DNA of 62,290 bases, filler included, from Hausera hauseri (lineage: Eukaryota): the NCBI GenBank assembly GCA_046269625.1. It is 9 parts of 9 records of this genome, joined end to end, with 100 filler letters (N's around TTAATTAATTAA, not from the genome) between each part and the next. Parts side by side here need not be neighbours in the genome. Positions count along the whole stretch, not along the records: positions 49,445 to 53,887 come from JBJURY010579670.1; 8 more parts are not named here. One strand, 5' to 3'. The notes below the pieces were generated by a model, which did not search any database, was not told where the DNA came from, and saw nothing but the letters and a program-made list of their open reading frames with translations. How positions within the stretch are numbered: the first letter of the stretch is position 1; each line of letters opens with the position of its first letter. Positions 50,420-53,400 of this stretch are shown piece by piece. A program made the position numbers and the translations under genes.

Positions 50420-53400
50420 TTTTCTGTTTGTCTCTGAACAAGTGCCAATTCTTGTATTATTGTCTGAATCAGACTGTTAATCCATCCACCTCTGTATTTT
50501 ACCCACCCTTCCCCATTAGCTTTTATTACTCTTGTACAATCTCTGTTTCATTCTATCTCCTTGATTTGGATTCAGACCATTTATCACCATTATTTTATGT
50601 AAGAGATTGGTTATAGCTGTCACAATTTTATTTCTAGATATACGTGTTCCCATCATTCTGGAGAGTGTATCTCTTTCTTGTATTGTTTATTTTCTCATCT
50701 ATGAGAATATCTGTAAATTTATCACTGATTTTTGTTATTTCATTTCTGGTTATCTCTATCAATGAGTCTGGTATTTCTTGCTAATAAGGTTTGCAATAAT
50801 GTTGCCAACAAGACACTACATGCATCATACTCTTCTCCGGCTGTTAACAATCTTCGAACAACTTCATTTCTTTCCCCTCTGCCTTGTAGTTGATAAAGTT
50901 TCGTAGTTCCTTTAGGTCTACCTCAATATCTTTCACGGGTTTGAATTTGTTTTTGTATAGGAATATTTGTTTCAATTCCTGTCTGCTGAACTTCGTGATG
51001 TTCGGTTTCTTGTATACCCTTTTCTGTAACTTCAGTAAGGATTTCTTCTATTATCTCTTGTTCAGTTTGTTTGAAGGTAATACATACGGGGTTGTATTTG
51101 TTTTCCCATATTCCTACTTCATACATAGTTTCGTAGTCTAGCCATGTCCGTCCATACAACCACAATTCTAGCTCTCCTCGCGCCTGAGTTATTTCATTAA
51201 TCCTTTGCTTTAGTACAGTTATTGTGTCTAACCACTTCATTCTCAGAGCATAGAAATCTTGGTTGGAGAGTAACTACTATTTCAGGGTTTTCTCCAATCG
51301 TTCTTACTCTGTCTTCGTAGCGGTATATTATATATCGGACAAAGTTTTGGTGTGGACTCTTGTCAGCATCATATACTAACAATAGATCCAAATTTGTAAA
51401 TTGTTGATGGCTGACTGTAGGTTACAGTAACATTGAAAGATCCCCTCTGAATTGAGTGAAAAAGTTTGATCTTTTTTTTCACTACCTGGAGGTGAATCTG
51501 ACTCAGGTGTCGTCAAATCTTCTTCTTGTATTAAGGGTTTATCTTTTCTTTTAACCTTTTTCTTTTCGGTATCTGATTCTGATGTAGGATTCTTCTTAGG
51601 CCTGCCAATTGGAGCAGTAATTGAATTTTCATTCATCATTTTGTCTTTTCAAAAATTTGCTGTTCTTTTAATTTTCAGTATAGCTGTTTCCATTCAGCTA
51701 CTTTACATTCATCATCTATCATAATTGTTTTACATTCTTTCAATTTAGCTCCAATCTTTTGTTAGAGCTTTTCTATTGTATTTTTAGGCTAGGTATCTGT
51801 AGTTTCATGCTCATTATCCGTATCAGATATATTACCAATTATATCAACATTATTTTTCTCTGAACTTGATTGTCCTTAACTGGGATACGAACGAGCCATA
51901 TATCCATATTTTTGACAAGCGAAACACAATGGTTGTCCATCCTGATTAACCTTAGGTTTCTTAATTGCAGACTTTCGGAGTTGACTCTGAAAAGTAACCT
52001 TCTGCTGTTGTTCCAACTGATTCTGCCATTTTGGAACGGTTTTCAAATTTTTTCTTTCGTTAAAAAATTTTCGACTTCCTTTTATCATTCCTGGAAGGCT
52101 TTTCACATTTGCAAGCCCTTCGTAATTATCTTTTGTCTTCCTAACTTTACTGCCGCTTCTTTATAGGTGTCAGGATCAGCAACGATAATATTTTGAATTT
52201 CTCTGGTCACTACGTAACAGAACTGAGCTAGGATAGCATCTTCTCTTAGGTCATCATCTGCATAGGCTCTCTGAGCCAACTTCTGAAGGGCACATGCATA
52301 CTGTTGCAACGGTTTCACCTTTTCTCTGACGTCTCCCGTTGAATTCTCCAATTCAACCCTTTCCTGACGGGTCTATTAAGAGCCTTTCCTCCAGGGACTC
52401 TAAGGCTATCCCATTCAGCTTTATTCTGTTCCTCTACTTGTGTATAAGCAGTGAGTGCTATTCCGTTAAGATGAAAGGAAAGGCGTTTTATCCTAAGCTA
52501 GTCTGTCCATCCAAAGCTTTCTGAGTACATCTGGTACTGCATGAGGAACTCACTGTAGTTCTGATCTGGCGTGCTTTCGAATTTGTCCATTGACCTAAGC
52601 TAGCACCTAGGCCTGAATTAGACATTTGGGGGCTTTTCGTTTTGAAGGTTTTCTTCTGTTTCAGAACCGGATGGGCTTCTCACCGAATGCGTATTTTCAA
52701 TTGTATTATTTATAGCGTTTCCTCTACTTCATAGATGATACGCCAACGTGCCTCCTCACTCGGAGCACCAATGTTTAGTTAGATGTTTCAAATAGTTTAG
52801 ACCTCGCGACCTCAAACTTGAATTTTATTTTTACTTGCAGTAACCTGTGGGGTTATCGGATTTTATTTAGTCCTACTGTGAGAATCGGTCACTAGAGGTA
52901 CACTAGCGGATTCACCCTTAATTAACAATATTTTAAACAAAGGTCCTTAAGGGACGTTATACCTGAATGGGCCCTTAGTTTAGATAATTGTTTCAGTTAT
53001 TTAACGTTAATTATAATGAACAAAGGAGAAAGACTTAACGATATAAACATTTAATAAATAGATATTAATGAATTACTAAAGCAATCGAAGCAATGAGTTG
53101 AAGATAAAATGAAGAAAAACACTTACAAATATCAAACATTGACATTCCGAAATAATTAGTCGTACAGAAGTTGAGAAAAATTAAATTTTCAACTGTGATA
53201 AGACTAGTATTTATACCAGGTTGAATAGAGGTGAAATTACAGAAAGTCGGAATAAATTTGTAGGAAGTCCAAATAAATAAAACCTAATTACAAGAAAATG
53301 AAATTAAATCAAATTATCCAGACGGATAAGTTACAGACCAGAAAATTAAACTATGTATTGTTTCGTGATCACAAAGTTAAATTACATATCATTTCACGAT

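Follow-up and report, generated by a model that had tools for sequence, protein, structure and literature searches.

The window analysed here is a 62,290-nucleotide stretch of Hausera hauseri DNA (assembly GCA_046269625.1) made of nine contigs and the N linkers between them; the two retroelement copies compared in this work sit on separate contigs. The copy under study, hereafter element 2, is decayed and occupies the minus strand of contig 49445–53887 (JBJURY010579670.1). Read in its coding direction, it comprises a primer-binding site (PBS, 52753–52770) directly after the CA end of a presumed 5' LTR, a decayed Gag (51880–52625) interrupted by stops and frame changes, with a capsid part and one degenerate CCHC knuckle near 51926–51885, an AT-hook-like motif (PIGRPKK, 51592–51612), the helical (51290–51454) and ubiquitin-like (UBL, 51070–51290) halves of an accessory module, a second AT-hook-like motif (GRPKG, preceded by a stop, 50908–50925) and a decayed, multiply frameshifted region that is weakly Bcl-2-like (50404–50800). 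Element 1, the "9-kb element" on the plus strand of contig 4806–12688, is decayed too, and runs from a PBS through Gag, a long helical stretch, a domain at 9124–9342, a GRP motif at 9538 and Env to the beginning of a protease, where the contig ends. Element 2 is probably a dead, broken copy of a Gag-Env-Pol retroelement of the Ty3/gypsy type, the gypsy placement coming from Gag and Env.

The first-pass annotation had described, after the Gag of element 2, an AT-hook, a PHD-like finger and, across a frameshift, a ubiquitin-like domain homologous to that of element 1. The strings on which this description relied do all lie on the minus strand (PIGRPKK, 51612–51592; CYC-x-IWIYC, 51432–51379; IVVTL, near 51281–51267), and the frame does change, near 51263, after which the reading FYALRMKW...YEVGI continues to about 51110. 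Compared directly by BLASTP, the two UBL stretches are only weakly similar, with 28% identity over 47 aa (E 0.002), and Pfam names no ubiquitin family on either window domain. Relatives from outside the window were therefore needed.

A search with the Env of element 1 alone yielded one intact polyprotein of 3036 aa among 356 candidates, and the Env of that polyprotein in turn yielded 11 polyproteins of 2099–4057 aa among 3214 candidates. Env precedes the protease in all 11, and reverse transcriptase (RT) lies further on in eight of them. Ten of the 11 carry the module upstream of Env; the eleventh, P0004, begins downstream of it. A library-wide search with a module profile matched 1056 proteins at E ≤ 0.001, among the best 150 of which 11 more proteins with full or partial modules were taken in; P0005 and P0011 were already known, and 138 of the 150 rows were left out. 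Most of these best 150 matches are proteins with 4–17 tandem divergent UBL repeats. The same library-wide search recovered P0111, an unbroken outside protein of 1130 aa that is 44–80% identical to element 2, depending on the segment, and that shows in a single frame the order Gag, CCHC knuckle, hook (residue 306), module (387–536), hook (585), weak Bcl-2-like region, signal peptide and Env. P0111 stops within Env, and its source contig is 4786 bases long. A word-index search of longer proteins with the window UBL frame found no relative among 223 candidates, and none of the 125 pattern matches in a metagenome contig scan was a relative.

What these proteins share is a unit of about 150 residues, a helical half followed by the UBL. 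A profile built from 12 outside modules and containing no window sequence was used to assess whether the two window domains are homologous. When this profile was run against the window, element 1 ranked first (8965–9336, 45.6 bits), and element 2 ranked second and third with two collinear pieces, 51430–51296 (8.0 bits) and 51240–51070 (4.7 bits); the top score over 20 shuffled windows was 3.5 bits. When the element 2 module was scored as one sequence, with an X at the frame break, it reached 26.7 bits, against 12.8 bits for the best of 5000 shuffles. All 12 rows were required, as a two-sequence profile missed element 2; a whole-protein alignment (A1) spread the module apart and was not used. 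Both loci are thus ranked top in the window by a profile drawn only from outside sequences, which bears out the homology first proposed. Identity is low: 13% between the two window modules over the module, and 11–28% between these two and the modules of elements across which the unit is present. One outside protein, P0010, gives matches to PF00240 (E 4.4e-5) and to PF11976 (E 0.0015) that stay below the cut-off. The proposal that the domain recurs as a conserved, family-level module proved correct on a broader basis than had been claimed, since it is found in ten of the 11 polyproteins fetched with Env and in 11 further proteins. I hold the identification of the module with high confidence. 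Because seven of the 11 inner branches of the module tree are open, vertical descent is not shown by that tree.

The fold was predicted for the module of element 1 (8953–9345, plus strand), whose frame is open, with a 12-row alignment that included the UBL frame of element 2 among its rows; the model is of a homologue, not of the window copy under study. AlphaFold2 gave a pLDDT of 88.5 and a pTM of 0.81, with three helices followed by a strand-strand-helix-strand-strand-strand core. Foldseek returned 142 matches to this model at E ≤ 0.001, and among the matches listed are SUMO, ISG15 and ubiquitin, with probability 1.0; VIA-align reached Z 9.6, with an rmsd of 1.4 over 73 residues, and the top rows of both searches are all of ubiquitin fold. 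The best 60 matches of the family profile to PDB sequences are all ubiquitin-like (ubiquitin, ISG15, ubiquilin), ubiquilin-2 being matched at E 2.6e-5. A single-sequence fold of 9100–9360 reached a pLDDT of only 48.7, and both fold searches made with it were uninformative; Atlas features for 8953–9582 pointed to ubiquitin families at 0.77–0.79, which is a lead only. The check by profile and structure that had been called for therefore comes out in favour of the claim, the two loci being homologous by profile and the homologue at 8953–9345 being modelled as a beta-grasp. For the UBL of element 2, located by profile and by its match to P0111, a beta-grasp fold is accordingly predicted from the model of its homologue.

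The Ile44 patch of ubiquitin is the contact of most ubiquitin-binding domains. In the present family, the column equivalent to Ile44 holds Ile in none of 12 modules, and the position of Arg54 holds Glu in all 12; the conserved face is instead an acidic D-D-x-E loop. Of 10 outside proteins, one has a di-glycine after the domain; the two window domains have none. Since neither the di-glycine nor the Ile44 patch is kept, conjugation of this UBL is unlikely, as far as its sequence can tell, and the domain of element 2 is an integral one.

The supposed PHD-like finger did not survive. The CYC...IWIYC string (51379–51432) is an off-frame reading of the helical half of the module, whose true coding frame (51290–51454, with an in-frame stop near 51422) is 75% identical to residues 404–468 of P0111 and corresponds to the three helices of the homologue model. 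Of the three frames over 51445–51262, the one reading LL..NL..LLVY matched 9 of the 12 outside modules (p ≤ 0.034), against one module for the CYC frame and none for the third. P0111 lacks any cysteine between residues 289 and 531, a C4-H-C3 ligand set is absent from the coding frame, and no PHD pattern occurs in element 1 or in any of 22 outside proteins. Pfam PHD_3 matches the CYC string at E 0.1 only, with 13 bits of 25. The three-part accessory toolkit of AT-hook, PHD finger and UBL fails for want of its finger. The helical half may resemble TFIIS N-terminal domains (TND/IBD-like), a likeness to which the searches lent no support: none of 12 members matched a TFIIS-type Pfam family at E ≤ 1, Atlas assigned the helical half to an unrelated family with low recognition, and the fold searches barely touched the helical part.

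The first-pass annotation had also stated that the accessory parts of element 2 stand in a different order from those of element 1, and had suggested that domains were shuffled. By sequence, the hooks have the GRP core and basic flanks of AT-hooks, the upstream one lacking the Arg before GRP. They are short motifs, GRP[RK] occurring seven times in the six-frame window, and Pfam AT_hook gives a sub-threshold match on one relative only, P0017. Element 2 has a second GRP motif, at 50922, after the UBL, as has element 1 (9529–9552, plus strand). This is a place conserved in the family: P0111 has KRNRGRPKG at 585, and where it aligns with element 1, over a stretch that takes in helices, UBL and hook (24% identity over 215 aa, E 1e-4), GRP falls on GRP. 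Of the 15 outside proteins that extend at least 100 residues past the module, 10 have a hook after it and five do not; left out of this count were six proteins with fewer than 100 residues after the module and P0004, which starts downstream, and a spurious second module match was disregarded in P0001, which has the hook. A hook before the module, conversely, occurs in one of the 21 module-bearing outside proteins, namely P0111, the close relative of element 2, in which the same motif stands at residue 306; the upstream hook is thus lineage-specific. Because the second hook of P0111 aligns with that of element 1, the order is conserved, one lineage having gained an upstream hook. Neither the different order nor the shuffling can be upheld, element 2 having kept the common order of module then AT-hook. 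To judge from the sequences compared, variation within the family is one of copy number (two modules in tandem in four of 21) and of the downstream hook being present or not (absent in five of 15).

Homology of the two Gags, also proposed at first pass, is supported by 35% identity over 51 aa (E about 1e-4) and by a single Gag profile that matches both, with 88.7 bits for element 1 and 39.4 and 17.0 bits for element 2. By tblastn, the Gag region of element 2 matches residues 23–291 of P0111, whose Gag in turn matches the Arc capsid at E 0.007, so that an N-terminal Gag with a CCHC knuckle is present. A likeness noticed by eye between the Gag-module linker and those of distant relatives failed the corresponding comparison, with no p < 0.05 for three frames against eight linkers. 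The PBS of the two elements differ on sequence comparison, as had been said; the "Ile" then assigned to that of element 2 is a putative label. Compared by eye with the 12-mers given in the supplement of PMC13524379, as far as that was available, the PBS of element 1 is two mismatches from Arg_CCG and also two from Asn_GUU, and that of element 2 is two mismatches from a 12-mer labelled "others".

Downstream of the second hook, region 50404–50800 is 53–80% identical to residues 648–775 of P0111. The Bcl-2-like character of this region comes from relatives: Pfam Bcl-2 matches P0111 at 651–748 with E 0.055 only (19.1 bits with a two-sequence profile) and P0006 at E 0.0015, and a profile of the region matches P0017 and P0024. 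Nothing significant was found directly on the window copy, and no such region could be detected in element 1 or in the majority of the relatives. An ankyrin-like match at 50922–50743 (E 0.004, best stretch i-E 23) was rejected, as there is no Pfam match, the ankyrin profile of the relatives is negative and a canonical RGRP hook occupies this place in P0111. Element 2 lacks a counterpart of P0111 352–403 and contains several stops and frame changes; its similarity to P0111 ends at 50404, right before the signal peptide of the P0111 Env. Neither an Env profile nor comparison with P0111 revealed a trace of Env in the remaining 541 codons of the contig, and no second LTR was found in that contig. 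DNA past the end of similarity (49445–50400) looks unrelated.

Whether Env and protease follow in full-length copies, as the first-pass annotation had asked, receives a divided answer. Env does follow in the subfamily, P0111 having an Env of PF24664 type (residues 793–980, E 6e-19) in frame after the accessory region, and is lost from the window copy; as P0111 ends inside Env, before any protease, that part is seen only in the more distant relatives (11 of 11) and in element 1. The latter has a decayed Env (10062–11933, plus strand) matched by the Env profile and by Pfam PF24664, a viral fusion glycoprotein (E 3.5e-8, 1.8e-8 and 1.3e-10), and, near 12546–12653 on the same strand, at the contig end, the start of an aspartic protease (RVP, E 0.015). 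In the 10 polyproteins measured, Env starts 72–391 residues after the module. The polyprotein P0001 combines C2H2 fingers with three aspartic-protease-like domains, of which two lie between Env and RT and the third after integrase, and several of its relatives likewise have more than one protease copy.

Contigs of run X1 provide further copies. Matched to 50880–51700 were 666 related contigs; five of the records listed, with about 10–13% of letters different, cover both halves of the module, and one contig joins the upstream hook to the module with a longer spacer. As X1 may be the source sample, these contigs show that there are multiple copies and are not independent support. Contig depth in X1 is lower for the UBL than for the Gag of element 2, and depth cannot rank the parts. 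In one X1 contig, 49613 is joined to 50344 and the 730 bases in between are left out.

Several other features of the window deserve mention. A third decayed Gag-CCHC-Env element lies at 57450–60010 on the minus strand (Gag profile, 60007–59648; CCHC, near 59198–59004; Env, 58513–57516); it gave no match to the helical-UBL module, for which there is little room between knuckle and Env. On the plus strand, 23267–24469 holds a C-terminal part of Env and a linker from a sister of element 1, its DNA being 68% identical to 11428–12154. Between Gag and module, element 1 itself has about 880 mostly helical-looking codons (6311–8950, plus strand) with a small Cys/His cluster near 8070–8280; this stretch hits no Pfam family and has no clear counterpart in the 11 polyproteins. 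A near-intact non-LTR element (26338–31368, plus strand) has a 758-aa ORF1, in which a GDSL/SGNH-like motif lies, and an ORF2 bearing endonuclease and RT motifs, all named by eye. Finally, I take 54100–54620 (minus strand) to be a host-like gene with short introns resembling choline/ethanolamine kinase, and 56984–57541 (plus strand), which adjoins the third element, to be a host-like CWC22-like frame without visible introns.

The layout itself is known. The giant gypsy-like Burro/GYPSM1 elements of planarians encode Gag, Ubi2/SUMO-like and BCL2 domains and an in-frame Env with a mononegavirus-like fusion protein, followed by protease, so that the Gag-SUMO-like-BCL2-Env-Pol arrangement was already published (Arkhipova and Yushenova 2019, PMC6431247). 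The present family has in common with Burro a CCHC Gag, a ubiquitin/SUMO-like domain, in some relatives a weakly BCL2-like region, Env and protease in one polyprotein; ankyrin repeats occur in two of the 11 relatives. By description, Burro is far larger (about 4,900–5,100 aa) and has MATH and BIR domains (PMC6431247), for which Pfam scans of the relatives gave no match. In its available text, that review has no occurrence of AT-hook and no helical partner domain. Literature searches turned up no description of the hooks or of the helical partner; such domains may be treated in the primary Burro papers. Errantiviruses with GAG-ENV-POL order and an HSV/gB-type Env have been described in Platyhelminthes, Bryozoa and Nematoda (Chary and Hayashi, eLife 2026, PMC13524379, as far as available). 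They share this gene order with the family, and in the available part of that source the Env row of Smed_errantivirus_1 shares motifs visible by eye with P0001, P0002, P0005 and P0010. Neither "ubiquitin" nor "AT-hook" occurs in the main text as available, where accessory domains are not described; the window copy, unlike these errantiviruses, lacks Env and Pol. With integral ubiquitin-like domains (ubiquilin, ISG15, SUMO, Rad60 SLD, TINCR) the module shares a predicted beta-grasp (Z 8–9.6, rmsd about 1.4–2.5); it differs from them in its identity of 8–22%, in the lack of both di-glycine and Ile44 and in a fixed three-helix N-terminal partner. Overall, element 2 is a further, dead example of a layout known from Burro. 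On the evidence of sequence, its UBL proves genuine and its finger spurious, and shuffling is not shown.

The best overall explanation, to which I give a probability of about 60%, is that element 2 preserves a broken accessory region, a helical-UBL module between two hooks, of what was likely a nuclear DNA-binding helper protein. The three-helix domain, the UBL and the flanking hooks would have been inherited from an ancestor of the family, not captured repeatedly, and the element's own protease would free the accessory region from the polyprotein. The freed protein would be nuclear, its hooks binding AT-rich DNA by analogy with MLV p12, while the helical-UBL unit might bind a protein partner, which could be the capsid or integrase of the element itself or a chromatin factor of the host. 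MLV p12 is a Gag-encoded chromatin tether and the AT-hook a minor-groove motif (PMC5053271, available text); p12 and host LEDGF/p75, as treated in that text, offer a functional analogy only, that of a Gag-linked accessory part and of an AT-hook tether. On this analogy, the chances that the helper protein acts as a chromatin tether are roughly even. Since a hook is missing in five of 15 relatives, DNA binding is not obligatory to the module.

This absence also favours a doubtful but serious alternative, in which the module would serve as a decoy of, or an adaptor to, the ubiquitin/SUMO machinery of the host (for silencing, the proteasome or the control of cell death), acting with its Bcl-2-like neighbour, and the hooks would be incidental basic patches of nuclear-localisation type. 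The module persists in relatives without hooks, the Bcl-2-like region follows it in P0006 and P0111 and can be traced by profile in P0017 and P0024, and meddling with apoptosis and ubiquitination was suggested for Burro (PMC6431247). However, the surface on which such a decoy would be expected to rely is not kept, as seen at Ile44, and most relatives, like element 1, show no Bcl-2-like region. It is improbable that the UBL serves to handle the polyprotein, by aiding the folding of the cytosolic part ahead of the internal Env signal peptide or by tagging that part to be cleaved or degraded. The position of the UBL, always 72–391 residues before Env where measured, and the presence of ubiquitin-insert pestivirus polyproteins among the structural matches speak for such a role, but there is no conserved di-glycine, the third Gag-Env remnant of the window shows no module, and both the obligatory helical partner and the tandem copies are left unexplained. 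The original picture of a chromatin-reader toolkit of AT-hook, PHD finger and UBL, shuffled between elements, can draw on the existence of the Cys string with its PHD_3 match and on the hook that does lie upstream of the UBL in element 2. With that string off-frame, the cysteines missing from this part of P0111, no PHD pattern in 22 of 22 proteins and a conserved downstream hook, it is very improbable indeed.

Returning to the helper protein, a bolder and rather unlikely form of this reading is that the Gag-Env-Pol clade as a whole carries a chromatin tether of its own, consisting of a hitherto undescribed three-helix domain (perhaps of the TFIIS-N/LEDGF-IBD type), an acidic-faced UBL and an AT-hook. 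Capsid or integrase would then be linked to host DNA without a host cofactor, and lineages would tune the tether by adding hooks or duplicating the module. For the family as known, the "SUMO-like motif" of Burro would be one part of a conserved two-domain module that in most cases has an AT-hook after it and is unlikely to be conjugated as ubiquitin is, and P0111 supplies a natural unbroken version of the domain. If the module is indeed a self-encoded chromatin tether, or a decoy for SUMO/ubiquitin-based silencing, it would explain the persistence of such large elements in animal genomes.
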